Sequence record: NZ_CP096760.1
DNA: 64,000 nucleotides
DNA from: a plasmid
Strand: one strand, 5' to 3'
Shown piece after piece: positions 2,459-47,825 of this stretch. Each line of letters begins with the position of its first letter. Within the stretch, counting starts at the first letter, position 1. The position numbers and the translations under genes are program-made. The notes under the pieces are model-generated. The model was not told the origin of the DNA. It saw nothing but the letters and a program-made list of their open reading frames with translations, and searched no databases.

Positions 2459-2480
2459 ATTAATAAGCGCTTACTATAAT
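2459..2480 (+). promoter_or_regulatory. Conserved palindrome plus TATAAT promoter-like element
   Basis: TTAATAAGCGCTTACTATAAT upstream of the 2527 gene. Confidence 0.45.
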
Positions 2481-2526
2481 TTGATAATATCGTTTTTATA
2501 GTAATTACTAATGTTTCGAGGTTTTA

Positions 2527-2958
2527 ATGAGCGAATGGCAGAAAGAACTTGCGATACAAAACAAGTTCGGCAATAGCGCTCCAATTTCAAAGGAGTCTAT
2601 TTACTTAAATACGGAAGAAAAGCAAAAACTTCAATTTCAGCCGCGTAAAACGTATGGGCGTAGGCTGCCTGCGAACGAATGCGAAATTGAAGAAATGGGC
2701 TACATGAAGTTTGTTCGCAAGCTGCAAGAGCAAGAACAGGAAATTGTAGTCATTAAAACAGACGGCGAAGTTGTGCGTGGATACATCCGTGCTGCGGATG
2801 CAGAAACGATCTCGCTTCGTTGTTATTTGAATGGTGATAAAAACGGTCGTTATCGTGCGCGTGTTCTTTTCAAACACCAAATTTCCGAGTTCTCACCAAC
2901 TAAGGGGATTGAAGACCTAGTTGATGAGCTAGAGAGAAAGTCGAAATCTAAATCTTAA
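2527..2958 (+). CDS. hypothetical protein
   Basis: 143-aa ORF. Confidence 0.5.
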   Translation: MSEWQKELAIQNKFGNSAPISKESIYLNTEEKQKLQFQPRKTYGRRLPANECEIEEMGYMKFVRKLQEQEQEIVVIKTDGEVVRGYIRAADAETISLRCYLNGDKNGRYRARVLFKHQISEFSPTKGIEDLVDELERKSKSKS

Positions 2959-2994
2959 ACGTAAGCCATCTATTTTCTATAAGGATTATCTTAT

Positions 2995-4398
2995 ATGTCT
3001 ACTGCTGTGGCCGAAATTCATGAAGAAGAGGTCGTTGATAAAGAACTCGAAGGCTTCACCGAAGAAAAGTTTGATTACGACGATGAGTTTCAATCAAAAA
3101 TTGCGGCTTTAACTTTACGTGACGATGAGTTTCTTAGAAGAGCCGCCCATATTCTGAAGCCAGAATTTTTCGAAAATCAGGGTGAAGCATGTCTGGTCGA
3201 TATTGCGCTCCAACACTTCAATAAATATGGATGTTCTCCTGATCCTGCTTCTGTTGTCCAAATTATCAAGGATAAAGCTGCTTCTAAAGTTTATAAGCGA
3301 GAAACTTTAGCGGCAATTGTGGAAGCAAGGAAGAAATTAATTGGCATCTATGTCACTGACAAGGCTTTCGTTGAAGAAAAGGTTGTTGAGTTCGCGCGAA
3401 AACAGGCGGTATCCAATGCGATTGTTAATTCTGTTCCTGATCTTGAGGCAGGGAATTACGCCAAGATTGAAGCGCGTATCAAGGAAGCTATTGCGGTCGG
3501 ATTGAATGAAGAGGGTGTTGGTTATGACTTCTTCGCTCAGGCGTTGAATCGTAAGCTGGCACGTATCGAGAAGCTGACAGGCAAAGTACCTCCGACAGGC
3601 ATTACTACTGGCTGTAAAGAACTTGATGATCTGCTGTATCACAGAGGTTGGGGACGCAAGGAGCTGTCTCTATTAATGGGCGGTGCAAAAGCAGGTAAGA
3701 CGCAAGCGCTTATTCACTTTGGCCGTATCGCAAGCTTTGCTAAATACAACGTTCTATATGTAACGCTAGAAGTTGGTAAAGACATTATTGCAGACCGTTT
3801 AGATGCCTCTATTTCAAAAGTGATCATGAAAGAATTGGCGTCGAAGGCTGCAAGTGTTGCAACTGCGGTCGAGACGGTAGCCAAGACGGCGGGCAAATTT
3901 ATTATTCATGAATTTGGTTCCGGTACATTTTCTCCGTCACAGCTAAGAGCATTAATTGATAGGTATAAGAATCCTGGGCGGAACCCTGATGGAACGATAA
4001 GACCGCCAATCAAGTTCGATATGATCATTGTGGACTATGCAGATTTGATGCGTCCAGATATTCGTACAAATGACCCAAAAGAGAACTCAAGAGTTGTCTA
4101 TGTTGATTTACGCGCGATTGCTTTTGAAGAGAATGTGGCGTTACTGACAGCTACTCAGACCAACCGTGAGGGCTTTAAGTCAACGGTAGCCAAGGCAGAG
4201 CACGTAGCTGAGGACTTTAACAAAATCAGGACCGCTGACGTTGCAATCTCCATCAACATTACAGAGGAAGAGAGAGCGAAAGGTCAGGCTCGATTGTACT
4301 TTGCAGCTTCTCGAAACCAAGAGATGGGGGTTACTGTGGTGATTAAGCAGAATGTGTCCATGATGAGGTTCTTGGAAGAAGTGATTAGCGTCGAATAA
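2995..4398 (+). CDS. DnaB-family replicative DNA helicase
   Basis: Walker A GGAKAGKTQAL. The domain order is DnaB-like, with the C-terminal RecA-like ATPase. Confidence 0.8.
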   Translation: MSTAVAEIHEEEVVDKELEGFTEEKFDYDDEFQSKIAALTLRDDEFLRRAAHILKPEFFENQGEACLVDIALQHFNKYGCSPDPASVVQIIKDKAASKVYKRETLAAIVEARKKLIGIYVTDKAFVEEKVVEFARKQAVSNAIVNSVPDLEAGNYAKIEARIKEAIAVGLNEEGVGYDFFAQALNRKLARIEKLTGKVPPTGITTGCKELDDLLYHRGWGRKELSLLMGGAKAGKTQALIHFGRIASFAKYNVLYVTLEVGKDIIADRLDASISKVIMKELASKAASVATAVETVAKTAGKFIIHEFGSGTFSPSQLRALIDRYKNPGRNPDGTIRPPIKFDMIIVDYADLMRPDIRTNDPKENSRVVYVDLRAIAFEENVALLTATQTNREGFKSTVAKAEHVAEDFNKIRTADVAISINITEEERAKGQARLYFAASRNQEMGVTVVIKQNVSMMRFLEEVISVE

Positions 4399-4413
4399 AT
4401 TTAACCCAATATT

Positions 4414-4465
4414 ATAGTAAGCGCTTATTTATAAATTTGTGCTAGTATAAATAAGCGCTAATTTT
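4414..4465 (+). promoter_or_regulatory. Two tandem copies of the palindromic promoter-like element
   Basis: TATAGTAAGCGCTTATTTATAAAT and GTATAAATAAGCGCTAATTTTATC upstream of the primase gene. Confidence 0.4.
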
Positions 4466-4470
4466 ATCTA

Positions 4471-6198: not shown

Positions 6199-6689
6199 TG
6201 AACAGAGTAATTATTGGGGTTCCACACTGTCGGTTTATGGTGACAAAAACCACAACGAATGAAAAGGTTTTGGAGCTCACAGAATATTTTGCTGTCCACA
6301 AGCATACTCAAGATGAAGTATTAGGCTTGGCGATCAAGGCTGTTGATTACCATGATAACAAGGGCGGGTATCACCGAACGGTCGAAATTCTTGAAAAATA
6401 CGAAGGACTTTCTTACTCAACAGTAGCAGAAAGGGTAAAGAATTTAAGTAAGGCTGCTGTACGTAATCTAGTTGATGAATTGTCTACCAATTCGGATTCG
6501 ATTAATCCAATTGAATATGCTCAATCAATTTTCGGTCGCGAAGCATCCAATATTTTTGACAAAGGGCGAGAAGCTGAGATCAAGTCAATTTTTCAAAATT
6601 ATTTTGGACCTATCAGAAGCGAACTGAGCGAATTAATTCTTGATACAGATGAGTATGCTGCCTATAAAGGAGTTCAAGGATCATGGTAA
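6198..6689 (+). CDS. hypothetical protein
   Basis: Start set to ATG 6198, which overlaps the upstream stop. The ORF track began at an upstream TTG. Confidence 0.5.
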   Translation: MNRVIIGVPHCRFMVTKTTTNEKVLELTEYFAVHKHTQDEVLGLAIKAVDYHDNKGGYHRTVEILEKYEGLSYSTVAERVKNLSKAAVRNLVDELSTNSDSINPIEYAQSIFGREASNIFDKGREAEIKSIFQNYFGPIRSELSELILDTDEYAAYKGVQGSW

Positions 6690-7291
6690 CTAAAACTCTT
6701 CCTGTACTCGATTTGGAATTATCCAGAAGCGGAACAAATGCCTATTACTGCGATTTTTGCCCTCATACTGGCAACCGTCCTAATTATGCTGCATGCCTAA
6801 AGCGTATCCATAATGTTCAGGAGGGAAATGAGCGCGAGGTGGATGCAGTTTGCGTAGTCGCTATCCACAGACATCACTGTGAAGCTGCCGAAATGCGTGA
6901 ACGTGAAATTGAGGCAGGTAAGGCTCTCTATTACATTGATCGTTCAGAAATGCGAAAACAAGTTGGGAAGCGGCTGGCTAAACAAGGAATTTCTATTTCT
7001 TCTAAATTTGATTATAAGTTAGAACTTACTAATATTAATGGTGAAAAACTAGATAAAGAAATTCCAGTTAATTCAAAGGGTAATTATTCATTAAGTGATG
7101 CAATCAATACTAAACTAAAGAAAAATAGTTTGAATACCAAAGATGATCATGTAGAATCGCAACAAGAAAATAAAGTAAGCGCTAACTTATATATCGAGAG
7201 TGAGAGCTTAACTGTACCAAGTATCGAGAGCGGATTATCGCTTTTAGAAATTGCTAACCGTTTCAAAGCAAACACACAGGAAAAATTATGA
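6683..7291 (+). CDS. hypothetical protein, Cys/His-rich N-terminus (possible zinc binding)
   Basis: CDFCPH...CLKRIHN...HRHHCE; ATGGTAA overlap with the upstream gene. Confidence 0.5.
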   Translation: MVTKTLPVLDLELSRSGTNAYYCDFCPHTGNRPNYAACLKRIHNVQEGNEREVDAVCVVAIHRHHCEAAEMREREIEAGKALYYIDRSEMRKQVGKRLAKQGISISSKFDYKLELTNINGEKLDKEIPVNSKGNYSLSDAINTKLKKNSLNTKDDHVESQQENKVSANLYIESESLTVPSIESGLSLLEIANRFKANTQEKL

Positions 7292-13446: not shown

Positions 13447-13866
13447 TTAGCTGGCTTTAAGTGTTTCTAGGAAAGCATCAAAGGCTTCTTTCTGTCTTGG
13501 GTTATTGAAAAACTCAAAATTATGGCCAGCGTTTGCTTCGCGAATTTGTTTAATTAAATTCGATTCTGCATCAGTAATAAGAGGTTGCTCAATCATGGCT
13601 TCCATTTCTTCAAGCAGATGAGGCATGTATTCCTCTAGGCAGCGCATGAAGAGGTCTTTAGCATCGATTTTTAAAGCATCGGCCATAGCGCGCACACGTT
13701 CAAGAGGTAATTTGCTTTTACCGCGAACAATGAAGCTAACCATGTTTTGATTGATACCCATGATCTCTGCCAATTGCGACTGATTCAGATCCGATGCATT
13801 TAGTTGAGCGTCGAGATATTGGGCGACAGTTAGTTTGCGTTTGGTGTTAGTAGCTGCTGATTTCAT
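13447..13866 (-). CDS. XRE-family HTH transcriptional regulator (putative prophage repressor)
   Basis: HTH ...QSQLAEIMGINQNMVSFIVRG... It is divergent from the + strand gene array, with a 420-bp control region. Confidence 0.7.
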   Translation of the reverse strand: MKSAATNTKRKLTVAQYLDAQLNASDLNQSQLAEIMGINQNMVSFIVRGKSKLPLERVRAMADALKIDAKDLFMRCLEEYMPHLLEEMEAMIEQPLITDAESNLIKQIREANAGHNFEFFNNPRQKEAFDAFLETLKAS

Positions 13867-14287
13867 AGTAACGTTTTCCTTAGAATATTCTTAATAGATA
13901 TAAAGTCATAATGTCGGAATGTATCCTCGATACAACATTATAGACTTAAAATATTTGCGGTTTAGGTAAATTATATCAGTAAGTGCTGATTTACCCAAGT
14001 TCAAGAAAAGTACAGATTTGTATAGGATTGGATAACATGACATCGGTCACAATTAACGGAAAAATTTAGTAAGTAAGCATTGATTAATATTTTCTTATTT
14101 TTGGGTTAAACTAATGGTCAGACTATAGGTGAGTAGATGCTCATTTTAAGTACAGGCAATTTGTTAGCTGATGCAGACAATCATACTATAATGACAACGT
14201 ATCGACTGATACCAAGAGGAAGTATAAGCCTCATTCAAGCCAATTATTTGTCAAAAAAGTATGATAGTTAGAGTATAGGAGTAAAAA

Positions 14288-14482
14288 ATGTCGAAAAGTG
14301 TTGAAGTTATTACACCTGAAACCGTAGCAGATTTCTTGGCAGAGCAGGGTTCTGAACTGATCTTTGAGGGCAATCAAATTAATGTAATTAAAGGAAAAAA
14401 TGAGGAATGCGGTGATTTTCTTGTGATTAACAATGCACTTGGCGAAAATTTGTTTATTAAACTTAGCTATATAGTCTTATGA
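14288..14482 (+). CDS. hypothetical small protein
   Basis: 64-aa ORF with an RBS (AGGAG), first gene after the switch region. Confidence 0.45.
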   Translation: MSKSVEVITPETVADFLAEQGSELIFEGNQINVIKGKNEECGDFLVINNALGENLFIKLSYIVL

Positions 14483-14643: not shown

Positions 14644-14666
14644 ATTAGTAAGCACTTATTAATATA
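14644..14666 (+). promoter_or_regulatory. Palindromic promoter-like element
   Basis: ATTAGTAAGCACTTATTAATAT. Confidence 0.4.
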
Positions 14667-16684: not shown

Positions 16685-16712
16685 ATTAGTAAGCACTTAC
16701 TTTATTTTTATG
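16685..16712 (+). promoter_or_regulatory. Palindromic promoter-like element
   Basis: ATTAGTAAGCACTTACTTTATTTTTATGAT. Confidence 0.4.
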
Positions 16713-16789: not shown

Positions 16790-18034
16790 ATGTCTAACGA
16801 TCCTATTATCTGTGAAATCTGTGGTGGAAAAACTCACGTAATTGCTAAGCATTTAAAAGAAAAACATCCTGAAACTACGTATGAAGAGTACAAGAAACAG
16901 TATCCAGATAGCCCTTTATTGTCGCCTTTAGCGCAGAAAAAGATGCAAGAACAGGCTGAACTGAAAAGAGCTAAAGAAGCAGAGTTAGCAAAGGCGCAAC
17001 AAGAAAAAGCAACAGATACTTCAACATCTAAGGAAGAAACAACAGTGTCTACTAATAACCACAATGTAAAGTTAGCGCTTACTAATATTGAGGCAAAACC
17101 AAACGATATTGTGGTGTCTAAACCATTTCATGAAATCTTTGATCTGAAAGGTAAAAGCGCGCTTAGTGGTTCAGGTAAACCGATTCCAATCTCATGCATT
17201 GAGAACTCTGCCTTCCCGGAAATGATTCCAGAAATTAATGATACGTATGTATGGAACGTGAACGAGCTGAAGGATGTCATGATTGCATTGGAGCTAAACA
17301 TCAACCCTTACGTGTGGGGACACAAAGGTGCTGGTAAATCAGAAATGTTTGACCAGATCGCAGCTCGAACTGGCCGTCCTCTTGTTCGTATTCAGCACAC
17401 TTCAAATACAGAAGAATCTCACATTGTAGGTATGTGGACGGTTAAAAATGGTGAAACCATCTTTGAGCTTGGGCCATTAGCTTTAGCGATGAAGCATGGC
17501 TGGATGTATTTGGCTGACGAATATGATTTCGCGCAACCAAACGTTTTATCTGTATATCAAGCTGTACTAGAAGGTAAACCTTTATATATCAAAGAAGCAG
17601 ATGCAGCTAACCGTGTCATCAAACCACATCCAAACTTCCGTTTTGCTGCAACAGGTAACACGAACGGTTCAGGTGATGAAACTGGTCTTTATCAGGGTAC
17701 TAACTTACAGAACTCAGCGAACTACGACCGTTTTGGCTCAGTGATCTATAAGAGCTACATGAAGAAAGAAGATGAGTCCTTGATTATCCAGAAACGTGTA
17801 GGTTTATGCGCAGAGGATGCTGACAAGTTAGTGGATTATGCAAACTTGGTACGCGAGCAATATGCAAACTCTAAGATCAGCGACACCATCTCACCACGTT
17901 CATTAATCAACGCAGCAATGATTGGCTTGCGTCGTAACGATTACAAGCACGGTCTCAAATTGGCGTTTACTAACAAGCTCACTCAAGTCGATCAGCAAGT
18001 TGCGGAAGACTTGGCTCAACGAGTGTTCGGTTAA
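16790..18034 (+). CDS. CobS/MoxR-like AAA+ ATPase with N-terminal zinc ribbon
   Basis: CEICGG...HLKEKH zinc ribbon; Walker A GHKGAGKSE. Adjacent to the VWA partner. Confidence 0.7.
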   Translation: MSNDPIICEICGGKTHVIAKHLKEKHPETTYEEYKKQYPDSPLLSPLAQKKMQEQAELKRAKEAELAKAQQEKATDTSTSKEETTVSTNNHNVKLALTNIEAKPNDIVVSKPFHEIFDLKGKSALSGSGKPIPISCIENSAFPEMIPEINDTYVWNVNELKDVMIALELNINPYVWGHKGAGKSEMFDQIAARTGRPLVRIQHTSNTEESHIVGMWTVKNGETIFELGPLALAMKHGWMYLADEYDFAQPNVLSVYQAVLEGKPLYIKEADAANRVIKPHPNFRFAATGNTNGSGDETGLYQGTNLQNSANYDRFGSVIYKSYMKKEDESLIIQKRVGLCAEDADKLVDYANLVREQYANSKISDTISPRSLINAAMIGLRRNDYKHGLKLAFTNKLTQVDQQVAEDLAQRVFG

Positions 18035-18058: not shown

Positions 18059-18724
18059 ATGGTAAGAAATCAAGATCAGCTTTTCAGAGATCATGACAAG
18101 CTTCTTCGTCATTTGGCACACCGGAATATTAGCCGACTTACCTCAGTCGGCTATTGCATTGACGTTGAAGAGCTGTATGCCATTTTCTGTGAAGTTTTCG
18201 TGGTATCGATTCAGACTTGGGATGAAAGCAAAGGCAAATTAACGACTTATTTAACTACTGCTTGCCTCAACATGGTATCGAGATTACTGAAAAAATACCA
18301 TTTGGGCGATAACAGAACGGAATACGAGTCCGACATTTTGCATCGTATGGGTGATGGTGAAGATGACTGTGATTATGACGTTTTTGTTGATCACCAGAGC
18401 CAAAATATTTTAGGCCCATATGAGTTGATGCAGACTCTTACAGAAGAAATGCAGCAGCTTTCACCGTTCGCAAAAATTTTACTCAAATTCACCTTAAATC
18501 CGCCTGATTTCATTGAAAGAGAGTTGTTGGCACAAGAAGCCAAATATCAGCTTTCCCTCAATACGCCTGAGAAAAATGAATCGCGGGGACCAAGACGTCG
18601 CAAATTGAATCTAAGTTTTGTGGCTAATTGCATCATGAAAACAGCCGAAACAAACAAAGAAAAACGATTCATTCGTGACGCTGTGAAAGAAGTTGAAGAA
18701 GCCGTTACGCGAGTTGCTATCTAA
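18059..18724 (+). CDS. gp55-like phage late sigma factor (putative)
   Basis: TWDESKGKLTTYLTTACLNMVSRLLKK matches the pattern [27 protein letters not shown] recalled from T4 gp55 (sigma region 2-like). Confidence 0.5.
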   Translation: MVRNQDQLFRDHDKLLRHLAHRNISRLTSVGYCIDVEELYAIFCEVFVVSIQTWDESKGKLTTYLTTACLNMVSRLLKKYHLGDNRTEYESDILHRMGDGEDDCDYDVFVDHQSQNILGPYELMQTLTEEMQQLSPFAKILLKFTLNPPDFIERELLAQEAKYQLSLNTPEKNESRGPRRRKLNLSFVANCIMKTAETNKEKRFIRDAVKEVEEAVTRVAI

Positions 18725-19500: not shown

Positions 19501-21858
19501 ATGTTAAACCACGCAATGTCAGTGCAATCTGACTTTTCGATAGGAAAATCATTATTAACGGTAGACAAAATTGTCGAAGCTGCAAAAGGCTTAGGCTATT
19601 CATCGGTCGCAATCGTTGATGACATGTCCTTACATGCATTGGTAGATTTTTCGAACAAAGCCACCAAAGCCAATATCAAGCCGGTGTTTGGTTGTCGTTT
19701 GCGTGTATATGACGATTCTAAATATCGTAAGCCCCCTGCCTCATCTGGTATTGCTGAAAAACGCAACTTGATGTTCTGCCCTAAAGTCTACGTAAAAAGC
19801 GAAAAAGGCATTAAAGGCTTATTCAAACTTCTTACAGACGCAAACTCTAAAGAGCAATATTACTACCACAGCCGTACTGATCTGGATGCTCTATGCAAAT
19901 TGGAAGATGTGGTCGTAACGACTGGTGATATGTACGGTCTGTTTAGTCACCCTGATCACGAAAGAATCTTAAAAGTATTAAAAGCGAGATTTGGTGATGA
20001 TTTATATATTGAATTTAGTCCGATCAATACGCCATTGTTCGACCGCTTAAACTACTTAGGCTATTTGGCGTATGAACGCGAAAAAATTAAAACCGTTGTC
20101 ACTTATCCTTTTAACTATCTTGAGAATGAAGATGCGGACACTTTGGATGTATTGAGCGCTATCGCAACCAATACCCAACTTGATTTGCACTATCGTCCTA
20201 TTCAATACGTAAAAGATTTTGGTTTTAAAGAGCCAAAATTCATTTTAGACCATACAAAAGCTGCTATTCAGCGTATGGCTAAATATGAGCGCGTCAATTC
20301 AGCGGAAGCTTGGAAAGAAGGTCTAAAGAATATTTCTGAGCTGGTGGACAAATGCCAATATATTTTTGAGAAGCAGCCAGTTTCCCTACCTAAGCTAAGC
20401 ACTGACGAATTTAAAACACTATGCGCGAAATGCTTGGAAGGCTGGAAGAAACGCTTTTCTAAAGAGATTCTTGGATATAAGCCAACGAAAGCTGAATTAG
20501 ATACAGTATATAAATCTCGCTTAGGCTATGAGCTTTCAATATTAAAAAAGATGGGCTTTGAGTCCTACTTCCTGCTCGTTGAAGACTTGGTGATGTGGTC
20601 TAAAAACAACGGCGTGATTGTAGGCCCTGGGCGAGGTTCTGTTGGAGGTTCATTAGTCGCTTATCTGCTTGGGATCACGGACGTTGATCCTATACGTTTT
20701 GGATTGATCTTCGAACGTTTCATCAATCCTGAACGTCTTGACTTGCCTGATGCCGATCTGGACTTCGCTTCAAGCGGTCGCTACAAGGTGATTGATTACC
20801 TTGTTGAAAAATATGGTGAAGATTATGTCGCTGGTATCTCGAACTATTCAACACTAGCTTCAGCCTCAGCCCTACGTGATACAGGTCGTATCAGCGGTTT
20901 GAACAACATGCAATTAAGTGCGACCAAGCTTGTGCTTAAAGAACATGGAACGTCACTTGACCTGAATACTTCTGCGGACGCTGTGCCTGAGCTAGACAAG
21001 TTCCGCAATGAACATCCTGTTATCTGGAAGCATGCAACTAAGCTTGCAGGCACAATGAAATCGTTTGGCCAACATGCGGCAGGTATTGTTGTTGCAGGCG
21101 AACCTATCGTTAATCGAGCCGTGCTCGAGACTAGAGGAAAGTCACCAGTCGTCAATTGGGACAAGCGTGTAGTTGAGGATTGGGGCTTGATCAAGATGGA
21201 CTTGCTCGGTCTTGCCACCTTAGATGTATTAAACATTGCATGTGACTATGTAAAAGAGCGACATGGTATTGAATTGGATCTATTAAAGATTCCACTTGAT
21301 GATGAAAAAACCATGCAAGCTTTGGGTCGCGGTGAAACTGTAGGTGTGTTTCAGCTAGAAAGTAGCGGCATGCAACAACTATTGAAGAATATCTCAAACG
21401 GTGGCGCTGTAACCTTTGATGACATTTGTGCTGTTACCGCTTTGTATAGACCGGGCCCTATGGATTCAGGCATGTTGGATGACTATGTGGACTTACGAAA
21501 AGGATTAAAAGAAGTCACCTACGCACATGAAGTCCTTGAACCTGTTCTGTCTGACACTTATGGCGTTGTTGTGTATCAAGAGCAAACGATGGCGCTTGCT
21601 CGTAAGTTGGCAGGGTTCTCAATGGCTGAATCAGATCACCTCAGAAAAGCGATTGGTAAAAAAGACCTTAAGAAAATGGCTGAATTGAAACCGAAGTTTA
21701 TTGATGGTGCTAAAGCGGGGTTTGTAGAGGTTGAACTTGAAGATGGCACAAAGTTAAAAGTGCATCGAATGGAGAAGTTCAAATGCACTGATGGCGTGAT
21801 GAGAACGGTAGAAGAAGCATTCGCTGAAAGCGCTGAAATTCAATACTTTTATTCATAA
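19501..21858 (+). CDS. dnaE: DNA polymerase III alpha (DnaE-type), N-terminal part (PHP plus polymerase core)
   Basis: PHP N-terminus; GLIKMDLLGLATLDV and LRKAIGKK motifs. Homology ends near ...FIDGAKAG, then about 45 non-homologous codons before the stop. Confidence 0.85.
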   Translation: MLNHAMSVQSDFSIGKSLLTVDKIVEAAKGLGYSSVAIVDDMSLHALVDFSNKATKANIKPVFGCRLRVYDDSKYRKPPASSGIAEKRNLMFCPKVYVKSEKGIKGLFKLLTDANSKEQYYYHSRTDLDALCKLEDVVVTTGDMYGLFSHPDHERILKVLKARFGDDLYIEFSPINTPLFDRLNYLGYLAYEREKIKTVVTYPFNYLENEDADTLDVLSAIATNTQLDLHYRPIQYVKDFGFKEPKFILDHTKAAIQRMAKYERVNSAEAWKEGLKNISELVDKCQYIFEKQPVSLPKLSTDEFKTLCAKCLEGWKKRFSKEILGYKPTKAELDTVYKSRLGYELSILKKMGFESYFLLVEDLVMWSKNNGVIVGPGRGSVGGSLVAYLLGITDVDPIRFGLIFERFINPERLDLPDADLDFASSGRYKVIDYLVEKYGEDYVAGISNYSTLASASALRDTGRISGLNNMQLSATKLVLKEHGTSLDLNTSADAVPELDKFRNEHPVIWKHATKLAGTMKSFGQHAAGIVVAGEPIVNRAVLETRGKSPVVNWDKRVVEDWGLIKMDLLGLATLDVLNIACDYVKERHGIELDLLKIPLDDEKTMQALGRGETVGVFQLESSGMQQLLKNISNGGAVTFDDICAVTALYRPGPMDSGMLDDYVDLRKGLKEVTYAHEVLEPVLSDTYGVVVYQEQTMALARKLAGFSMAESDHLRKAIGKKDLKKMAELKPKFIDGAKAGFVEVELEDGTKLKVHRMEKFKCTDGVMRTVEEAFAESAEIQYFYS

Positions 21859-21906
21859 AATCAATCACTTATATTAATCAAATTGAATTAAAAACAGGTT
21901 GTTTAA

Positions 21907-24929: not shown

Positions 24930-24954
24930 AATTATTAGTAAGCGCTTACTATAA
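24930..24954 (+). promoter_or_regulatory. Palindromic promoter-like element (consensus copy)
   Basis: ATTATTAGTAAGCGCTTACTATAAT. Confidence 0.5.
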
Positions 24955-24958
24955 TGAA

Positions 24959-25006
24959 ATGCACTCAAAATTTTTCTAGTTCTAAGTAATTAGGCATTTT
25001 GAGTGC
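24959..25006 (+). promoter_or_regulatory. 12-bp perfect stem-loop in the SSB gene leader
   Basis: TGCACTCAAAAT, 24-nt loop, ATTTTGAGTGCA, immediately after the -10 box. Confidence 0.45.
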
Positions 25007-25064
25007 AAAGCATGAACTTCTAGCAATTGAGCATTTAAACCTTTTGACAGTAGGACATTAAGCA

Positions 25065-27025: not shown

Positions 27026-29226
27026 TTATGGAACCAAATTTATCTGCATTAGCTGACGACTTAGAAAAATTAATTGGCGACAACGAAGAAACGCAAACAG
27101 TGACTAACTGGCTTGATACTGGCGATCCAGAGTTAAACTTTGCGATTTCTGGACGCTATGACGGCGGTATTCCTTATGGTCGCATTGTTGAAATGTATGG
27201 TCCACCGTCATCAGGTAAAACCGCAGAGGCGACTGACTTAATGATTCGCGCCCAAGAAGCTGGCGGTATTGCCATGTTCTTTGACTGGGAACGTTCCTTT
27301 GATATTAACCTTGCGAAGAATCTAGGCTTAAAGACGGAGCGTCCATTCTGGATTTATAAAAAGCCTGAAACTTGGGAAGAAGGCAATGTTTTAGCAATGC
27401 GTGCAGTTGAGTTGATCCGCAATTCAGCAACAATTCCAGACGATGCGCCAATCATTTGCGTGTTTGACTCGGTTGCATCGGCAATTCCTCAATCTGTTTA
27501 CTATGACAATAAGGGCAAAAAGCGTGAAATCGACACATTCAATATGAGCGATAACACCGCTCTGGCTCGTGCTTCCAGTACGTCATTGAAAGTAATTGCT
27601 CAGACGGCTGAAAAGTACAATGCAACGTTCTTATATTTGAACCAACAGCGTACGAAAATTGGAGTGATGTTCGGTGATCCAACCTGTCTGAGAGCGGAAG
27701 TTCAGGTGCCATTCGTCGATGGTACGTCCGCAACCATGAAGCAAATTGTTGATGGCAAAATCAGCAAGGAAGTATGGTCTTGGAATGAAGTATCGGGTCA
27801 GCTTGAGCCAAAACGCATCATCGGTTGGCACAACAATGGCTCAATCAAAGGAACTGACAAAGAGTGGTATCACATCCGCGCTGTATGTCCTGAAACGCGC
27901 AATGGCATGGTTGCGGTATCGGGCACAAATGATCACAAAGTCCAAGTGAAAGACAAAGGTTGGATTAATTTTAGCGACGTTCGTGTAGGCGACTATGTGA
28001 TTACTCGCACCAAACGCACCTTTGCAGGAACAGCGCTTGAGTTCTTAAAGGGGTTGATCGGTTTTGACAGTCACATGGCGCGCGTGTCGTCGCAACGTCA
28101 GACAGCCGCACTGATCATTCAGGACAATGAAAACCCTGAATACGCACAGTGGAAGGTTGATCTGCTGTCACGCCACCTAAACTTCGTCAAGCGCGAAATC
28201 ACTATTAGCAAGGGCAATAAAGGGCATCGCTACGAGTCCTGTTACACCCATGAGTTGATGAAGTTTTACGACTTGTGCCGCTGTCCTCACACACTGTTCA
28301 AAGATGGCTGGACACCTATGCAATTAGCCATTGCAGTGATGGACGATGGTAATTACAAGGAGAGCAGCAAGACACTGAACCTGTCCTTTAAGCGACTGCG
28401 TGGCTGTGAGGATGAATTAGACGCAATCGGTCAATCGCTGTATCAATCATTTGGCTTAACTTATGATATTCGTTACGGTCAGGGTCGTATTGACTTTGAT
28501 GTAAAAGGTACTGCCAAGATCGCTGAATTGATCGCTCAGTACGTGCCAGACTGTATGCAGTACAAGTTACCGATTGAGTATCGCGGACGCTATGTAGCGC
28601 TCGAATTAGACGCTCCTGTTGATGAATCAGTTGTGCATTATGCAGAAGTGACAGAAATGCGCTTGGGAAGTAAAAATAAAGGCTCGGTAATGTATGACAT
28701 TACCGTTGAGGATAATCACAACTTCTTGGCAGGCAATACGCACAACGGTTTCTTGGTGCATAACTGCACACCAGGCGGTTCTTCTTTTGAATATTACGCA
28801 TCAGTACGAATTGCTCTTGGCCGTACCAAGTTAATGGAAACGGTCAACGGTAAAAAGCAGTTTGTGGGGCAGGATATTGCAACTAAAATTGTGAAAACCA
28901 AACTCACAAAACCGTTCCAAGAAACCACTATGCGTATGTGGTTTGACAAGAATGGCGTAGCGTTCTTTGACCGCCACTACAACTTAGTTGAGTTCTTAAA
29001 AGCTAAAGGCATTTTGAAACAGTCGGGCGCTTACATTGAATGGACTGACGGTAAGAAATATCACCTGAAATCGCTTTGCGACAAACTGAAAGCAGATCCA
29101 ACCGGATTGCAGCAGCTCCGCGCATTAATCCCTAAGATTTCACCAAGCGCTGATGACATTGAGGTCACACCGTTGATGAGCAATGAAGATGAAATGGAAG
29201 CTTTGTACAGTGACGATGCGTGTTAG
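27022..29226 (+). CDS. recA: RecA-family recombinase interrupted by an intein
   Basis: Walker A GPPSSGKT. Exteins join to KIGVMFGDPT/CTPGGSSFEYYASVRI, matching the E. coli RecA segment [26 protein letters not shown]. Confidence 0.85.
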   Translation: MIMEPNLSALADDLEKLIGDNEETQTVTNWLDTGDPELNFAISGRYDGGIPYGRIVEMYGPPSSGKTAEATDLMIRAQEAGGIAMFFDWERSFDINLAKNLGLKTERPFWIYKKPETWEEGNVLAMRAVELIRNSATIPDDAPIICVFDSVASAIPQSVYYDNKGKKREIDTFNMSDNTALARASSTSLKVIAQTAEKYNATFLYLNQQRTKIGVMFGDPTCLRAEVQVPFVDGTSATMKQIVDGKISKEVWSWNEVSGQLEPKRIIGWHNNGSIKGTDKEWYHIRAVCPETRNGMVAVSGTNDHKVQVKDKGWINFSDVRVGDYVITRTKRTFAGTALEFLKGLIGFDSHMARVSSQRQTAALIIQDNENPEYAQWKVDLLSRHLNFVKREITISKGNKGHRYESCYTHELMKFYDLCRCPHTLFKDGWTPMQLAIAVMDDGNYKESSKTLNLSFKRLRGCEDELDAIGQSLYQSFGLTYDIRYGQGRIDFDVKGTAKIAELIAQYVPDCMQYKLPIEYRGRYVALELDAPVDESVVHYAEVTEMRLGSKNKGSVMYDITVEDNHNFLAGNTHNGFLVHNCTPGGSSFEYYASVRIALGRTKLMETVNGKKQFVGQDIATKIVKTKLTKPFQETTMRMWFDKNGVAFFDRHYNLVEFLKAKGILKQSGAYIEWTDGKKYHLKSLCDKLKADPTGLQQLRALIPKISPSADDIEVTPLMSNEDEMEALYSDDAC
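27685..28764 (+). other. Intein (360 aa) with LAGLIDADG-type homing endonuclease motifs
   Basis: Starts with Cys (CLRAEV), ends ...VHN followed by +1 Cys. Internal LKGLIGFDSH and LAIAVMDDGN blocks. Confidence 0.8.
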
Positions 29227-30523: not shown

Positions 30524-30550
30524 TTATTAGTAAGCCCTTACTTATTTATC
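30524..30550 (+). promoter_or_regulatory. Palindromic promoter-like element (variant)
   Basis: ATTATTAGTAAGCCCTTACTTATTTATC. Confidence 0.35.
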
Positions 30551-30820: not shown

Positions 30821-30846
30821 TTATTAATAAGCGCTTATTATTAAAG
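30820..30846 (+). promoter_or_regulatory. Palindromic element (variant)
   Basis: ATTATTAATAAGCGCTTATTATTAAAG; only about 10 bp upstream of the sbcD start. Confidence 0.3.
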
Positions 30847-31969: not shown

Positions 31970-33909
31970 TGAAAATTCTAAAAGCCACTTTCCAGAATTT
32001 CTTAACCCTTTCAGAAGCTTGTTTGGAGCTTGATGATCGCGGTTTATTGTTAATTACAGGCAAGAATGATGACGATACATCAGCAAATTCAAATGGCGCT
32101 GGTAAATCATCACTGGTCGACGGTATCTGCTGGGCGTTATACGGTACGACGGCGCGTGATGTTACAGGGGATGACGTTGTAAATGAAACAGCCAAAAAAG
32201 ACTGCTGTGTATCTTTACAGATCGAAGATGATGGCAAGCTTTACAACATTACTCGTTATCGCAAAAGCAAAAAATTCAAGAATGCATTAATTGTCTCAAG
32301 CGTTGATAAAGCTGGCGTTGAAACCAACCTGACCAAAGGGACCGACAAGGAAACTCAGCTTCTCGTGAATGCCATTGTCGGATGCTCAGCAGACGTATTC
32401 ACATCAGCCGTCTATGCAGGGCAAGAACGAATGCCTGACCTTCCATCGATGACAGATAAGACCTTAAAAATGTTAATCGAGGAAGCTGCTGGGATTGAAG
32501 TGCTAGAAGCAGCTCATGCCATTGCTCGAAAAAACTTGAACGAAGCCAAGCTTGAGCATAGCGAAGCGCTGCATAAGGTTAGTTTGATTGACGCTCACAT
32601 TGCCAATGTTGAGGCATCTCTGCTTACGGTCGAGAAACAGTCTTTAGATTTTGAAATTACCAAAAAAGACCGAGCCAAAGAGCATCTTAAACTTTGCTTA
32701 CCGCATCTTGCGACCATTCGTGAATGTGAGGCTCAGCTCGACCTAGAATCCCCTGCCAAAGAAATTGAACAAATCAACGAGCAAATTGAACAGTTAAAGG
32801 AAATCCAGAAACAGCACACAGCCAAAAGCCTTGAGCTTCGCAAAATTTACGTGGACTTCAATGCACGCGTCCATTTGGCCAAAGTCGAAAAACAGAACAT
32901 CGAAAAGTTAAAAGCTGAAATTGCTAACTCTCAATCACTAGTGGGAACGCCGTGCAATGAATGTGGCAAGCAATATTGTGCAGAAGATTTGCATGACGCC
33001 ATTCAGGCCCGCGAAACACTGGTTAAAAGCAAAATTAAACAAAACAATGAAATCATCCTGAAAGCTAGGGAGATTGATGAACAAAGGAAAAATCTTGAGG
33101 CTGAGATTTCAGAGCTTGAGGATCAGTTAAAGCAGTTACCGACTCTTCAAGCGAAACTGGAAAAACTAAAACAGGATGCACAAGCCCAGTCATTAGCGGA
33201 AGAACGCAAGAAAATCGCAGAAGAGGCTGTGGCGCGCATCAAGGCGGAATCTCGCGAGAAGCTTAATGAAGTCAGTCCATTTGTCGCTCAGTTAAAAGAC
33301 TTGAATGACAAAAAGGTTAAATACCTTAAAGCCAGAGAAGACAAGCAGAAAGCCGCAGATTCAGCACTTGAGAAAGTTGAGCTTGCAAATATGGCGGTGA
33401 ATATTTTCGGTCCTGCTGGTGTACGCGCTCACATTCTCGATACCGTCACTCCATTCCTGAATAGCCGCACATCCGAATACTTGGGCGCATTGTCTGACGG
33501 CAACATTCATGCAACTTGGTCAACGCTATCTGCTACGGCCAAAGGTGAGCTGAAGGAGAAATTCAGCATCACGGTTGCAAATGATTCAGGCGGTTCTTCA
33601 TTCAAGAAATTATCAGGCGGAGAAAAACGTAAGGTTCGTCTGGCTACAGCTCTTGCCCTTCAAGATTTAGTGATGAGCCGTGCAACCAAGCCAATCAATC
33701 TATGGATTGCCGATGAAATTGATTATGCGCTCGATGAAAGTGGATTAGAACGACTTATGGTCGTGCTGGACAGAAAGGCTCGTGAGCGCGGAACAGTGCT
33801 GATCATTTCTCATCAGAGCGGGTTAAAGGACTGGGTAGATTTGGTCATCGAAGTGACCAAGAAAGAAGGTACTTCAACGGTTTCAGGAGACAACCTCAAG
33901 GCAGCATAA
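31969..33909 (+). CDS. sbcC: SbcC/Rad50-like ATPase (gp46-like)
   Basis: Walker A GKNDDDTSANSNGAGKSS, central coiled coil with CxxC hook (CNECGKQYC), signature LSGGEKRKVRLA, Walker B LWIADEID. Confidence 0.85.
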   Translation: MKILKATFQNFLTLSEACLELDDRGLLLITGKNDDDTSANSNGAGKSSLVDGICWALYGTTARDVTGDDVVNETAKKDCCVSLQIEDDGKLYNITRYRKSKKFKNALIVSSVDKAGVETNLTKGTDKETQLLVNAIVGCSADVFTSAVYAGQERMPDLPSMTDKTLKMLIEEAAGIEVLEAAHAIARKNLNEAKLEHSEALHKVSLIDAHIANVEASLLTVEKQSLDFEITKKDRAKEHLKLCLPHLATIRECEAQLDLESPAKEIEQINEQIEQLKEIQKQHTAKSLELRKIYVDFNARVHLAKVEKQNIEKLKAEIANSQSLVGTPCNECGKQYCAEDLHDAIQARETLVKSKIKQNNEIILKAREIDEQRKNLEAEISELEDQLKQLPTLQAKLEKLKQDAQAQSLAEERKKIAEEAVARIKAESREKLNEVSPFVAQLKDLNDKKVKYLKAREDKQKAADSALEKVELANMAVNIFGPAGVRAHILDTVTPFLNSRTSEYLGALSDGNIHATWSTLSATAKGELKEKFSITVANDSGGSSFKKLSGGEKRKVRLATALALQDLVMSRATKPINLWIADEIDYALDESGLERLMVVLDRKARERGTVLIISHQSGLKDWVDLVIEVTKKEGTSTVSGDNLKAA

Positions 33910-34838: not shown

Positions 34839-34969
34839 GCCGCAACTTGGGTGACATGGGTAATTCCGTCACTAACGAATATATAAATATCTTTAACCGA
34901 GAATATTTTAATTATTTATTTAATTAATTTATTCGAAAACGTCGGAACATATCAGACTTGGGAGTTTGT

Positions 34970-35583: not shown

Positions 35584-35632
35584 AATTATTAGTAAGCGCT
35601 TACTATAATTGCATGAGTAAGCGCTTATGATC
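35584..35632 (+). promoter_or_regulatory. Palindromic promoter-like element plus a second half-copy
   Basis: AATTATTAGTAAGCGCTTACTATAAT ... GAGTAAGCGCTTATGATC. Confidence 0.45.
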
Positions 35633-38443: not shown

Positions 38444-38467
38444 TATTAGTAAGCGCTTACTATAATT
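38444..38467 (+). promoter_or_regulatory. Palindromic promoter-like element (consensus copy)
   Basis: ATATTAGTAAGCGCTTACTATAAT, followed by the stem-loop GGGATGAA-AAG-TTCATCCC. Confidence 0.5.
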
Positions 38468-38499
38468 ATAGGGATGAAAAGTTCATCCCTATTTTATTT

Positions 38500-42276: not shown

Positions 42277-42316
42277 TATTATTAGTAAGCACTTACTTTA
42301 TTATTGTGCTTATAAT
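42277..42316 (+). promoter_or_regulatory. Palindromic promoter-like element, two partial copies
   Basis: TATTATTAGTAAGCACTTACTTTATTATTGTGCTTATAAT. Confidence 0.4.
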
Positions 42317-42340
42317 TAATTGAGTTGCCCTACTCAGAGA

Positions 42341-42366
42341 GAGCCACCTTCGGGTGGCTTTCATTT
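42341..42366 (+). terminator. Intrinsic terminator with UUCG tetraloop
   Basis: AGCCACC-TTCG-GGTGGCT then TTCATTT. Confidence 0.6.
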
Positions 42367-42794: not shown

Positions 42795-42819
42795 ATTATT
42801 AGTAATAGCTTACTATAAT
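42795..42819 (+). promoter_or_regulatory. Palindromic promoter-like element
   Basis: ATTATTAGTAATAGCTTACTATAAT, then the inverted repeat TTTCAGG...CCTGAAA. Confidence 0.45.
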
Positions 42820-45546: not shown

Positions 45547-45573
45547 ATAATAAGTAAGCACTTATTTATAATT
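45547..45573 (+). promoter_or_regulatory. Palindromic promoter-like element
   Basis: AATAATAAGTAAGCACTTATTTATAAT. Confidence 0.4.
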
Positions 45574-45588
45574 AATGGGTATTACGTT

Positions 45589-46032: not shown

Positions 46033-46044
46033 AGGAGAAAAATA

Positions 46045-46557
46045 ATGGCGCGTTACTTTGACATGTTTAGCAAAGAGATTTCTAAGGAAGAATATGAAAA
46101 GTTACGTGCCCATTTTGAGGAAGTTTTTAGAAAGCATGCCGAAAACGAACCAGACACTTTGCCGCTAAACATGTTTTCGGTGCGCGAATTTCAAAATGAA
46201 AACCTATGTGTGCAATTAATATGGCTCGGCGAAATCAGCGACAAGATAGTTTCCAGCCACTACAAGTCACAATATCCTATCTTTAAAATTGCGATCTTAA
46301 ATAAACGGAATGATGACCGATGGTATGAAGAACCTTTATCCAAGACGCACAACCGGCGGTCATCAGCCGATGCGGAATACGAAGACATCCTCTTGAAATA
46401 CTCCAAATGTTATTACGATGAAGAAGGTAACTTTACCTATAGTGAGGACAATCTTTCCAAGTGCATTCATGAACAAATTACGGTCGAGGGACTAATAGAA
46501 GAAAATCTCCCGTCAATTACCTTCAAACCGAAGACCAATTTCGATTCAGTGTGGTAA
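46045..46557 (+). CDS. hypothetical protein
   Basis: 170-aa ORF. Confidence 0.5.
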   Translation: MARYFDMFSKEISKEEYEKLRAHFEEVFRKHAENEPDTLPLNMFSVREFQNENLCVQLIWLGEISDKIVSSHYKSQYPIFKIAILNKRNDDRWYEEPLSKTHNRRSSADAEYEDILLKYSKCYYDEEGNFTYSEDNLSKCIHEQITVEGLIEENLPSITFKPKTNFDSVW

Positions 46558-46689
46558 CACACTGAATCTTATTATTTTACTTTACCTACAACATCGCCAT
46601 CATTTCGCTTCTTATCCACACGGCGCTCAATAAACTACATACAGCAGCAAGAAAACTGCAATAACTTCAACTAATAAAGGTATGTAAGT

Positions 46690-47553
46690 ATGAACGCAAA
46701 AGCTACTAATCAAGTAAAAGATGATGAATTACTTATATCTAATCTTTTTGATCAACTTGATATTGATGAATCAGAACTCGACATGGCTTTAGAGCCAACA
46801 GCCGAATCTGCTGCTGTTCAAGATGAAAAGCTAATCGATGAAGAGTTGCATGATGTTGAGTTATTAGACGACTTAAATAACACTGAACTTGAAACACTCA
46901 TTAATGATGAAGAATTAGATTTAAGCCTTGAAGCAGAAGAAGTTGAAAATTCTGTTGTTTCAGATAAGAAAGTTACAGAGCCTGAGAAGTTAAAAACTGA
47001 GAATGTAACTGAAAAACAAGTACCTAAATCTACACAGCAACGTGTAACGCACTACAACTCTAAGAAGTCGGAAGTTTTACTAGACCGTCTAGGCGGTAGT
47101 GCAGACATGATTCTTCTTGAAGCGAGTGATATTGATTTACCAAATGACAAGCTTAAAGAAAAACAAGAAAACCTGTTACGTATCCTGAACAACCAACCGA
47201 CGGTAATTGGTACACGAGGTAATGTTGAGACAGTTCAAAAGAAAGTAGCTGAGAAGGTCATTATCTTGTTCACCTATTTCAAGAACGGTGGAAACTTAAA
47301 TAAGGTCATGAGAATCGCATTTGAGACGATTATTACAGATGGTTATATTACAACTGGTAAAGGTGGCAATCTATATAACAACCTGTTGAATGCACATTAC
47401 TCAGAAGGTACAGCGCGAGCGCAGGCGGGACAGATGCTCCAAATGTTCCCCCTATTGAAAATTGCAACAAAAGAAGGAAATAAGCTAATTCCAAATGAGC
47501 AGTCGCTAATTTTAGCCAAGATGAAAGCTGATCTCTTTCCAAGTGAAAAGTAA
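46690..47553 (+). CDS. hypothetical protein, acidic N-terminal half
   Basis: 287-aa ORF. Confidence 0.5.
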   Translation: MNAKATNQVKDDELLISNLFDQLDIDESELDMALEPTAESAAVQDEKLIDEELHDVELLDDLNNTELETLINDEELDLSLEAEEVENSVVSDKKVTEPEKLKTENVTEKQVPKSTQQRVTHYNSKKSEVLLDRLGGSADMILLEASDIDLPNDKLKEKQENLLRILNNQPTVIGTRGNVETVQKKVAEKVIILFTYFKNGGNLNKVMRIAFETIITDGYITTGKGGNLYNNLLNAHYSEGTARAQAGQMLQMFPLLKIATKEGNKLIPNEQSLILAKMKADLFPSEK

Positions 47554-47570
47554 TAGAAAAAAGCGGTAAA

Positions 47571-47599
47571 AAGGGAGTGTCAAACTCCCTTTATTTTTG
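47571..47599 (+). terminator. Intrinsic terminator
   Basis: AGGGAGT-GTCAA-ACTCCCT then TTATTTTTG. Confidence 0.6.
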
Positions 47600-47727
47600 C
47601 CTATGTCAAAAACACTATTTTCCTGCTTCTAATTTGCGCGCTAATTACGTTAAAAAAATTTTTATAAAGAAACACTCACGCTGAAAATAAAATTAAATCT
47701 AGCGCTTTACAACGCAAAATAGCACTT

Positions 47728-47825
47728 CTTATATATAAGCGCTTACTTATAAATATTGTTATACTCTTTTAAAAATATAAAACAGTAGATAGAATCCATA
47801 TTATTAGTTATCGCTTACTATATAT
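47728..47825 (+). promoter_or_regulatory. Two palindromic promoter-like elements just upstream of the IS insertion
   Basis: CTTATATATAAGCGCTTACTTATAAAT and ATTATTAGTTATCGCTTACTATATAT. Confidence 0.4.

Follow-up and report, generated by a model that had tools for sequence, protein, structure and literature searches.

Recurrent 16-bp palindromes as candidate repressor operators in an Acinetobacter phage-plasmid

Which factor reads a short palindrome that recurs, nearly unchanged, upstream of one gene after another on a plasmid, and does its binding turn those genes off or on? The question is raised by a 64,000-nucleotide stretch of the plasmid record NZ_CP096760.1 (this whole stretch is referred to here as the window), in which copies of a 16-bp palindrome, most of them overlapping a hexamer that resembles a -10 box, are scattered over the first 47.9 kb. 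The palindromes are interpreted here, with modest confidence, as operators of a dimeric protein encoded by the phage-plasmid itself; the most likely such protein is the helix-turn-helix (HTH) protein encoded at 13447-13866, which would serve as the master repressor of the prophage.

Judged by its sequence, the window is an AB-group phage-plasmid of Acinetobacter (in the sense of PMC7969092). Its large open reading frames (ORFs) encode DnaB, primase, ligase, CobT-like and CobS/MoxR-like proteins, the alpha subunit of DNA polymerase III, UDG, RecA with an intein, SbcCD, and ribonucleotide reductase (RNR). The polymerase is 99-100% identical to genes carried by ~110-kb Acinetobacter plasmids; with those of Salmonella phage SSU5 and Rhizobium phages its identity is about 41-44%. 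A megablast search of a phage collection with 24 kb of the window gave no match, the element being known only as plasmids. The complete Acinetobacter relative used for comparison is pA1296_1 (NZ_CP018333.1; L002). Diverged syntenic loci (L005-L011) were retrieved via homologues of a sigma-like protein encoded in the window, and the distant relatives compared are Salmonella phage SSU5, Rhizobium phage RHEph10, E. coli Cyrano, and Klebsiella pJN2-26. No close complete plasmid of the L005 or L006 type was found in PLSDB.

The repeated palindromic element described in a first-pass annotation of this DNA is real. All 16 starts listed there carry a copy; the coordinates given take in 2-6 nt of left flank, and the starts of the 16-mers themselves are in Table 1. 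The consensus TAGTAAGCGCTTACTA has 13 matches in the window with at most two mismatches, compared with 0.01 expected from shuffled sequences, and 20 matches with at most four mismatches, compared with 4.2 expected. A position weight matrix scan at a threshold of 10 bits or more finds 19 matches on the plus strand of the window, against 1.3 per shuffled window on both strands. In total, the window holds 17 copies and 2 degenerate ones, and the complete relatives hold ~33 (pA1296_1), ~25 (SSU5), and ~30 (RHEph10), where at most 1.3 are expected. An exact 16-mer scan of genome contigs (596 Gb) returned only scattered single matches in unrelated taxa, which by a rough estimate is the level of chance.

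The same annotation placed the copies only in intergenic regions and always on the plus strand. The former is nearly true, the exceptions being a strong copy at 17069 inside the CobS/MoxR-like gene and two weak copies in ORF 6683-7291; the latter rests on the flanks only, as the core is a palindrome. The element is indeed absent after 47.9 kb, as had been noted, because that part of the window is accessory cargo: it consists of an insertion sequence (IS) and metabolic genes that are common on Acinetobacter plasmids. The structural and lysis modules are not part of the window; in the complete relatives the motif runs on through them.

In pA1296_1 the element is spread over the whole genome. There, 29 of 33 sites are intergenic, compared with 12% of non-coding DNA (p=7e-23), and all ~33 copies are in the orientation of the lytic genes. 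Copies are found 5' of ParB-like genes, terS, tail genes, and lysis genes, in the 45-nt gap between terL and the portal gene, in the gap between the scaffold and major capsid genes, and twice after the capsid gene; they usually start 10-26 nt past the upstream stop codon and lie between 13 and several hundred nt from the next ATG. In complete relatives copies also precede replication genes. Since copies stand before replication, packaging, head, tail, and lysis genes alike, the element does not mark one temporal class.

Comparison between lineages indicates what kind of molecule reads the element. The half-sites are TAGTAAGC/GCTTACTA in the window, AAGTAAGT/ACTTACTT in L005, AAGTCAGC/GCTGACTT in L006, L007, L008, and L011, AGGTAAGT/ACTTACCT in SSU5, Cyrano, and pJN2-26, and CAGTMAAT/ATTKACTG in RHEph10. 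The full site is AAGTAAGTACTTACTT in L005 and AAGTCAGCGCTGACTT in L006, L007, L008, and L011, the latter with the symmetric changes A5→C and T12→G; SSU5 has about 25 copies of (G)AT-AGGTAAGTACTTACCT-AT(C), RHEph10 has about 30 copies of CAGTMAATATTKACTG (0.35 expected), and the immunity regions of Cyrano and pJN2-26 contain the SSU5-type site. The site is a 16-bp dyad, which reaches 20-22 bp in some copies; five of its eight mirror position pairs differ between lineages, and they always do so in concert. Within a genome the two arms do not compensate for each other. In RHEph10, pair 5/12 is C-G in 14 copies, A·G in 11, C·T in 5, and A-T in none, and pair 3/14 is G-C in 7, A-T in 4, G·T in 12, and A·C in 7; in pA1296_1, pair 5/12 is T·T in 6 copies and never T-A. 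Pair 5/12, in the middle of the stem, is mismatched in 16 of 30 RHEph10 sites and 8 of 32 pA1296_1 sites. Symmetric change between lineages without compensation within genomes argues for a dimeric protein and against an RNA or cruciform hairpin, and the pattern points to half-sites that are read independently, as they would be by a protein dimer.

The position of the element is conserved along with its symmetry. Copies occur in the same gaps (terL/portal, DEAD helicase/ParB, and CobT/CobS) of the Acinetobacter relative, SSU5, and RHEph10, and a copy follows the major capsid gene in both the Acinetobacter relative and SSU5. The intragenic CobS copy is retained in L005, L006, L007, L008, L009, and L011, where it changes in step with the motif of each lineage, even in the choice of Leu codon (CTT vs CTG). 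The copy at 30825 leaves no space for a start site and a Shine-Dalgarno sequence, as it lies 13 nt before the SbcD ATG. Together with the copies that have no -10 hexamer (4449 and 35615) and the lineage-tracking CobS copy, it indicates that the dyad is a site in its own right.

Most copies overlap a -10-like hexamer. TATAAT begins at palindrome position 15 or 16, and in five window copies a perfect TATAAT begins at position 15. The presumed start is some 18-19 bp downstream of the dyad center, and the left flank hardly varies from (A/T)TAT. Of 28 intergenic pA1296_1 copies, 7 have a perfect TATAAT on the right; 2 have it on the left, and one of the latter pair faces a minus-strand gene. At the SSB gene, TATAAT is retained in 7 of 7 diverged relatives although the half-sites change. 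The absence of a TTGACA-like -35 box, which had been remarked on before, is borne out by eye: no copy has a conserved -35, and a consensus σ70 scan for -35/-10 pairs picks out only 2 copies, with no enrichment overall.

The protein that we infer to bind these dyads, from sequence and gene order, is the HTH regulator. Its gene in the window adjoins the integrase gene and is divergent from a 64-aa ORF, beyond which lie the CobT, CobS, sigma-like, and DnaE genes. The same order (HTH next to integrase, divergent from a small ORF, then CobT-CobS-DnaE) is found in Acinetobacter-type and enterobacterial loci, and in RHEph10 the HTH gene lies just upstream of CobT on the plus strand. The window protein aligns with RHEph10 gp041 with an hhalign probability of 98.9 (E=3e-17). 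A tblastn search with it matches E. coli SSU5-like phage-plasmids, including the Cyrano protein CYRAN_45, a 'putative repressor'; Klebsiella homologues were found with the Cyrano protein as query, and carriers of the family include Cyrano, PhiR41_1, CMS-2020a, and pJN2-26.

In two of these carriers the element is built into the switch region of the regulator. Roughly 30 nt ahead of the repressor ATG stands a strong palindrome (Cyrano, CGGTAAGCACTTACCA; pJN2-26, CGGTAAGTACTTACCA), and a σ70-like promoter (TTTACA, a spacer of 16-17 nt, TAATAT) leads directly into it; as a sequence arrangement this is the classical layout of an autoregulated repressor, and the same dyad read the other way has the layout of the lytic copies. 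The counterpart in the window consists of two degenerate copies, one facing the HTH gene and one facing the lytic genes. In published transcriptomes CYRAN_45 is named as the master repressor of Cyrano, and its expression in lysogens exceeds the prophage background 10-fold; ciprofloxacin induces Cyrano 39-fold (PMC9928086). A regulator that is encoded at a conserved switch copy and comes from a family annotated and expressed as a lysogeny repressor makes repression likelier than activation. At the start of the recognition helix, the four lineages whose half-site is AGTAAG have NQNM(V/I)S (SQNMIS in L005), and the one whose half-site is AGTCAG has RPTMVS. The view of the first-pass annotation that one dimeric factor controls a whole regulon fits these results, in that the half-sites change symmetrically, hairpin covariation is lacking, and copies lie at the regulator gene.

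Under this model, binding would repress. Bound repressor would cover about -26 to -11 at most copies, and ~30 lytic transcription units would all be shut while the element lives as a plasmid; after derepression, host RNA polymerase would use the -10-like hexamers despite the lack of a -35. Copies without a usable -10 (4449, 35615, 17069, and 30825) would act as auxiliary operators or roadblocks, and a weaker copy at the promoter region of the repressor gene would provide autoregulation.

Several observations weigh against this model. No HTH homologue was detected among the proteins of SSU5, though it keeps about 25 copies of the element. The model needs the assumption that SSU5, which is without the integrase and repressor block, is a repressor-less derivative that has kept its operators; among the cluster A mycobacteriophages, D29 is such a lytic derivative without repressor and with its sites kept (PMC5712189). 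The covariation of recognition helix and half-site gives weak support to the HTH protein as reader and is confounded by phylogeny. The mean match to TATAAT is alike on the two flanks (4.75 vs 4.71), the near-symmetric flanks carrying -10-like hexamers on both sides on average, and directionality is shown only by the perfect TATAAT and the SSB orthologues. The missing -35 is unusual for lytic promoters that need derepression only; it is not accounted for by the model and hints that a further, positive factor may take part. A terminator-like hairpin follows, rather than precedes, the motif in four or more intergenic regions, and two copies lie at most 15 nt from the next ATG with several more within ~20 nt; hairpins 3' of the motif and copies this close to a start codon mean that not every copy can be a working promoter. 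Lastly, the zinc-finger CobS protein and two ParB_N proteins are further candidate readers.

The missing -35 is the starting point for an activator model, in which the encoded dimer replaces the -35 contact and recruits host RNA polymerase to promoters that have only a -10, in the manner of Lpa in P1. It agrees with the -10-like hexamer standing at a fixed distance from the dyad where no copy has a -35, and with the SSB-site TATAAT, which is strictly kept in the seven diverged relatives while the half-sites drift. The geometry is unfavorable to it: the dyad, centered at about -18.5, extends over -12/-11, and a dimer bound there should collide with sigma region 2; in RHEph10, 11-33 nt separate the end of the palindrome from the ATG, so that a dimer would cover both the -10 and the start site. 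Moreover, the element is not confined to late genes, the adjacent conserved regulator is expressed in lysogens, when the lytic genes are silent, and there are copies without a -10 and inside a gene. Activation is accordingly regarded as unlikely.

A second alternative, which seems quite unlikely, assigns the dyads to another core protein, either the zinc-finger CobS or one of the two ParB_N proteins, with a role in DNA organization, partition, packaging, or long-range silencing in the manner of KorB. These proteins are present in every lineage with the motif, including SSU5, unlike the HTH and sigma-like proteins. The CobS/MoxR-like AAA+ ATPase is a core protein in all lineages; residues 2-55 form a zinc finger (CxxC..H..H) whose best match in the PDB is Ros87 (2jsp, E=0.0027; Pfam ROS_MUCR 1.6e-4) and which is conserved in L005, L006, and SSU5 (RHEph10 has CxxD instead), and the CobS gene itself contains a conserved copy of the element. 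The presence of a DNA-binding domain on a phage 'cobalamin' ATPase suggests, from its sequence, a role on DNA. Ros-type fingers bind AT-rich DNA as single domains, and a GC-centered dyad is not an obvious target for them. The two ParB_N proteins are core genes of the complete relatives, encoded outside the window. Proteins of the ParB, Noc, and KorB family bind palindromes of 13-16 bp at many sites, and a 16-bp palindrome is within the size of ParB sites, but nothing indicates that short ParB_N proteins have DNA sequence specificity. The strongest and most conserved context of the element is the repressor switch region, and its rigid coupling to gene starts and a -10-like hexamer suits control of transcription.

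A more far-reaching proposal, decidedly improbable, makes the palindrome the recognition element of a dedicated initiation system that AB-group, SSU5-like, and Rhizobium phage-plasmids would have in common, with a core protein standing in for -35 recognition at each lytic promoter. That protein could be the CobS AAA+ ATPase with its Ros-type zinc finger, together with its CobT/VWA partner, or else a Cro-like protein that partners the repressor; the HTH repressor would merely compete for the same dyad. If true, phage promoters of this architecture would be new, and the enigmatic phage CobS/CobT pair would gain a function.

Very improbable is a set of promoters read by the element's own sigma-like factor (18059-18724), an 'unusual sigma' having been the other option raised in the first-pass annotation. 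The sigma-like gene lies in the early operon, RHEph10 has a bona fide sigma factor at the same position (Sigma70_r2 1.4e-8), and a σ70-type -35 is absent. A structure model and a fold search, the match list of which is dominated by sigma factors, weakly support a sigma-like fold for the 221-aa protein; its own Pfam match is below threshold and its hhalign comparison with the RHEph10 sigma factor is not significant. The conserved block is too short for a -35/-10 pair, with 7-11 nt between the candidate parts, and to our knowledge sigma factors do not read dyad-symmetric sites. The distant relatives also speak against an unusual sigma specificity: SSU5 yielded no homologue, the CobS/DnaE gap is empty of genes in Cyrano and pJN2-26, and all three keep the palindrome.

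An RNA-level or cruciform element, in which the palindrome would form a hairpin serving as a terminator, a processing or stabilizing signal, or a structure in supercoiled DNA, is hardly more credible. The usual position of copies shortly past a stop codon would suit such an element, as would the longer GC-flanked inverted repeats around some L006-type copies and an excess of G·U over A·C mismatches (12 to 3) in pairs 2-6 of the Acinetobacter set. The absence of compensatory covariation described above is against it; the stem is A-U-rich with no U-tract, and several copies are adjoined by separate terminator-like hairpins with GC-rich stems and T-rich tails.

Three further candidates were rejected: a T7-like promoter, as the likeness of CTTACTATA to T7 CTCACTATA is superficial, the large ORFs (DnaE, RNR, RecA, SbcC, CobT, etc.) include no single-subunit RNA polymerase, and the gene set is that of an SSU5/AB-type phage-plasmid; a canonical σ70 promoter class, which has the -10 but would need a conserved -35 16-18 bp upstream; and a LacI/GalR operator, as the core GTAAGCGCTTAC fits the idealized site but the central CG is not conserved in relatives (L005 and SSU5 have GTAC or TTAC at the center, RHEph10 has TATT). 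The cre-like consensus of LacI/GalR operators is TGTAAGCGCTTACA; no LacI-family protein was seen.

Table 1. Copies of the palindrome in the window and genes for candidate readers.
Feature	Position	Strand	Remarks
Copy TAATAAGCGCTTACTA	2461..2476	+	TATAAT 2475-2480; 50 nt 5' of ORF 2527 (Hfq-like), upstream of DnaB
Copy TAGTAAGCGCTTATTT	4415..4430	+	TATAAA follows; DnaB/primase gap
Secondary degenerate copy AAATAAGCGCTAATTT	4449..4464	+	34 bp downstream of 4415 copy, center to center
Two weak copies	7016, 7173		Inside ORF 6683-7291
HTH_3/XRE-type regulator, 139 aa	13447..13866	-	Pfam HTH_3 7e-9; proposed master repressor
Degenerate immunity-region copy CAGTAAGTGCTGATTT (plus-strand letters)	13977..13992	-	Points at repressor gene
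Second immunity-region copy AAGTAAGCATTGATTA	14071..14086	+	Followed by TAATAT 14085-14090
64-aa ORF	14288..14482	+	Divergent from repressor gene, cro-like position
Copy TAGTAAGCACTTATTA	14646..14661	+	Followed by TAATAT; 61 nt 5' of CobT-like gene
Copy in CobT/CobS gap	16687..16702	+	Same-gap copies in L005-L011, SSU5, RHEph10
CobS/MoxR-like AAA+ ATPase with N-terminal Ros/MucR-type zinc finger	16790..18034	+	Alternative candidate reader
Strong intragenic copy	17069..17084	+	In CobS/MoxR-like gene, codons 94-99, K-L-A-L-T
Sigma-70-family-like protein, 221 aa	18059..18724	+	RefSeq name; Pfam Sigma70_r2 E=0.0026 only
Perfect copy with TATAAT	24936..24951	+	113 nt 5' of SSB (gp32-like) gene
Copy TAGTAAGCCCTTACTT	30528..30543	+	55 nt 5' of ORF 30599
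Copy TAATAAGCGCTTATTA	30825..30840	+	Symmetric G3A/C14T variant; 13 nt 5' of SbcD ATG
Perfect copy with TATAAT	35590..35605	+	40 nt 5' of ORF 35646
Secondary copy GAGTAAGCGCTTATGA	35615..35630	+	25 bp downstream of 35590 copy; no -10
Perfect copy with TATAAT	38447..38462	+	RNR alpha/beta gap
Copy TAGTAAGCACTTACTT	42283..42298	+	Terminator-like hairpin ~40 nt downstream
Copy TAGTAATAGCTTACTA with TATAAT	42800..42815	+	98 nt 5' of 3'-5' exonuclease gene
Copy AAGTAAGCACTTATTT	45552..45567	+	TATAAT follows
Copy ATATAAGCGCTTACTT	47733..47748	+	TATAAA follows
Copy TAGTTATCGCTTACTA	47805..47820	+	Last before IS and cargo insertion

Some copies differ from the majority in ways that bear on their possible roles (Table 1). 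The copy at 4449 has ATTTTATCT where the main copies have a -10 hexamer; this copy and the one at 35615 look, by sequence, like auxiliary operators. In the immunity region, the 13977 copy reads ..GCACTTACTG-ATATAAT on the minus strand, its TATAAT being the reverse complement of 13970-13975, and the 14071 copy points towards the 64-aa ORF and the CobT, CobS, sigma-like, and DnaE genes; both degenerate copies co-vary in L005 and L006.

Other copies are associated with further structure in the DNA around them. The 113-nt SSB leader contains a long inverted repeat, GCACTCAAAAT...ATTTTGAGTGC (24955-25060), which by analogy with T4 gp32 may be a translational operator. Directly 3' of the TATAAT of the RNR-gap copy there is a terminator-like hairpin (ATAGGGATGAAAAGTTCATCCCTAT plus a T-run; 38468-38492), and a start 7 nt past the -10 would fall within the 5' arm of its stem; read-through transcripts would end at this hairpin, and transcripts begun at the copy could escape it. 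The 42283 copy is followed, as seen by eye, by a terminator-like GC-rich hairpin with the T-rich tail AGCCACCTTCGGGTGGCTTTCATTT (42283-42365), an arrangement that could yield a short RNA (~50 nt) or a leader. The pA1296_1 copy before terS (32744) is succeeded by a leader of ~95 nt and a terminator-like hairpin with a long T run, a layout that recalls λ PR'-tR'. In L006 (8604-8660 and 14874-14915), and also in L007 and L011, copies lie inside longer GC-flanked inverted repeats, for example CTAGGGAAGA..palindrome..TCTTCCCTAG with a AAGTCAGC-type palindrome and then a T-rich run; operator and terminator-like stem appear, from the sequence, to be merged at two copies in the L006-type relatives.

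Several neighboring genes of the window are of separate interest. The ORF directly 3' of the strong copy at 2461 (2527-2958, 143 aa) has a weak Pfam match to Hfq (Sm-like; 2.4e-4). The DnaE gene (19501-23744) is split into a PHP/polymerase part (19501-21858) and an HHH/UDG part (22479-23744), with a free-standing NUMOD4/HNH-type ORF (21907-22482) between them; a single DnaE-UDG fusion of 1146-1149 aa is found in L005, L006, L008, L009, L010, and L011, and some Acinetobacter plasmids also give a DnaE match in two pieces over 3.6 kb. The split looks like a homing-endonuclease insertion. RecA (27022-29226; 734 aa) carries an intein with a LAGLIDADG endonuclease domain; the RecA proteins of L006, L007, L008, and L010 have 373-374 aa and no intein.

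A second repeat family, of about 115-130 bp, occurs in the window at 1592-1707 and 34839-34957, with a third copy in pA1296_1 (32215-32335). Its pattern is TCCGnCACTTGGGT..ACTTGGGTTTT..CTAACGAATA, an AT-rich core, and TTATTCGGAAAACG; one copy lies directly 3' of repM, and the late-region copy is centered on a copy of the palindrome. From these features the family could be an origin-like or other regulatory module.

Phage-plasmids of the AB group and of the SSU5-like kind are frequent in Acinetobacter, Klebsiella, E. coli, Salmonella, and Yersinia, and the group is clinically relevant and widely distributed. Counting all groups, Escherichia and Klebsiella have more than 200 phage-plasmids, which make up about 7.3% of the phages and plasmids of these genera (PMC7969092); phage-plasmids often bear resistance genes (PMC9600943). 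Nothing on the regulatory circuitry of AB-group or SSU5-like phage-plasmids was found in the paper library searched, and the motif strings tried are in no phage or plasmid paper of that library. One 16-bp operator family with a named candidate repressor provides a testable model of silence and induction, as well as a ready map of transcription units. The motif variants may work as immunity types, in which case the Acinetobacter-type half-sites TAGTAAGC, AAGTAAGT, and AAGTCAGC predict heteroimmune groups. Conservation of the system from Alphaproteobacteria to Gammaproteobacteria also makes it a useful case of repressor-operator co-evolution.

The style of control proposed here is known from other elements, and for this large family it appears not to have been described before. 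The T4 MotA box, (a/t)(a/t)TGCTT(t/c)A, is centered near -30, 11-13 bp upstream of the -10. The likeness to MotA/AsiA-type middle promoters suggested in the first-pass annotation does not hold, because the element is not a temporal class, is dyad-symmetric, and abuts or overlaps the -10 with its center near -18.5; no member of the MotA or AsiA families was found among ~40 proteins scanned, a scan that did not cover every ORF. The element likewise belongs to none of the P1 C1, stoperator, φC31, KorA/KorB, and Lpa families, each of which it resembles in part; in function the first four come nearest to it.

The Streptomyces phage φC31 has more than 12 copies of a 17-bp inverted repeat (conserved inverted repeats, CIRs), which are bound by the c repressor. 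As here, these are intergenic inverted repeats, and the early promoters beside them are repeated and non-canonical; in phage lineage, host, and repressor family the two systems have no relation. On IncP-1 plasmids, short palindromic operators of KorA and KorB occur at most promoters, one class overlapping the -10, and the promoters have normal -35 boxes. Recurrence of short palindromic operators on a mobile element and overlap with the -10 are shared with this system; the differences are the proteins (KorB is of the ParB family), the normal -35 boxes, and the element itself, a conjugative plasmid and not a phage.

Closest in layout are the Lpa-dependent promoters of P1, which have a -10, no -35, and a conserved inverted repeat just upstream, and which are also many. 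The dyad of the Lpa element is centered near -22, whereas the dyad considered here is near -18.5 and overlaps -12. Copies of this dyad are also spread over the whole genome, early replication genes and the repressor gene among them, and the regulator linked to it resembles a repressor; Lpa is an activator, at 11 late promoters (PMC10695390), and no search was aimed at an Lpa homologue. The stoperators of cluster A mycobacteriophages (L5, Bxb1) are asymmetric sites of 13-14 bp that depend on orientation, are bound by a monomer, and block elongation (PMC9283540, PMC6550527). They resemble the palindromes in number (about 25-35 sites per genome), in lying in short intergenic gaps at early and late genes, and in the co-evolution of site and repressor between lineages, with D29 comparable to SSU5; since the sites here are symmetric and mostly overlap a -10-like hexamer, they are not stoperators in the strict sense.

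The P1 C1 repressor, a monomeric protein outside the XRE family, binds asymmetric operators of 17 bp. Early expression and the choice between lysis and lysogeny are under the control of C1 (PMC10695390). P1 is also a phage-plasmid, and in both cases one repressor would govern many lytic units through operators scattered over a plasmid prophage of ~100 kb, with an operator at the repressor's own gene. The present system differs in its 16-bp dyad, in its small XRE-type HTH candidate, and in the reach of its sites, which cover structural genes too; in P1 those depend on Lpa. With more than 10 copies, a location in intergenic and promoter regions, and a copy at the repressor's own switch region, the palindromes resemble dispersed prophage-repressor operators in number and placement, and the HTH protein would be the repressor that binds and silences them.

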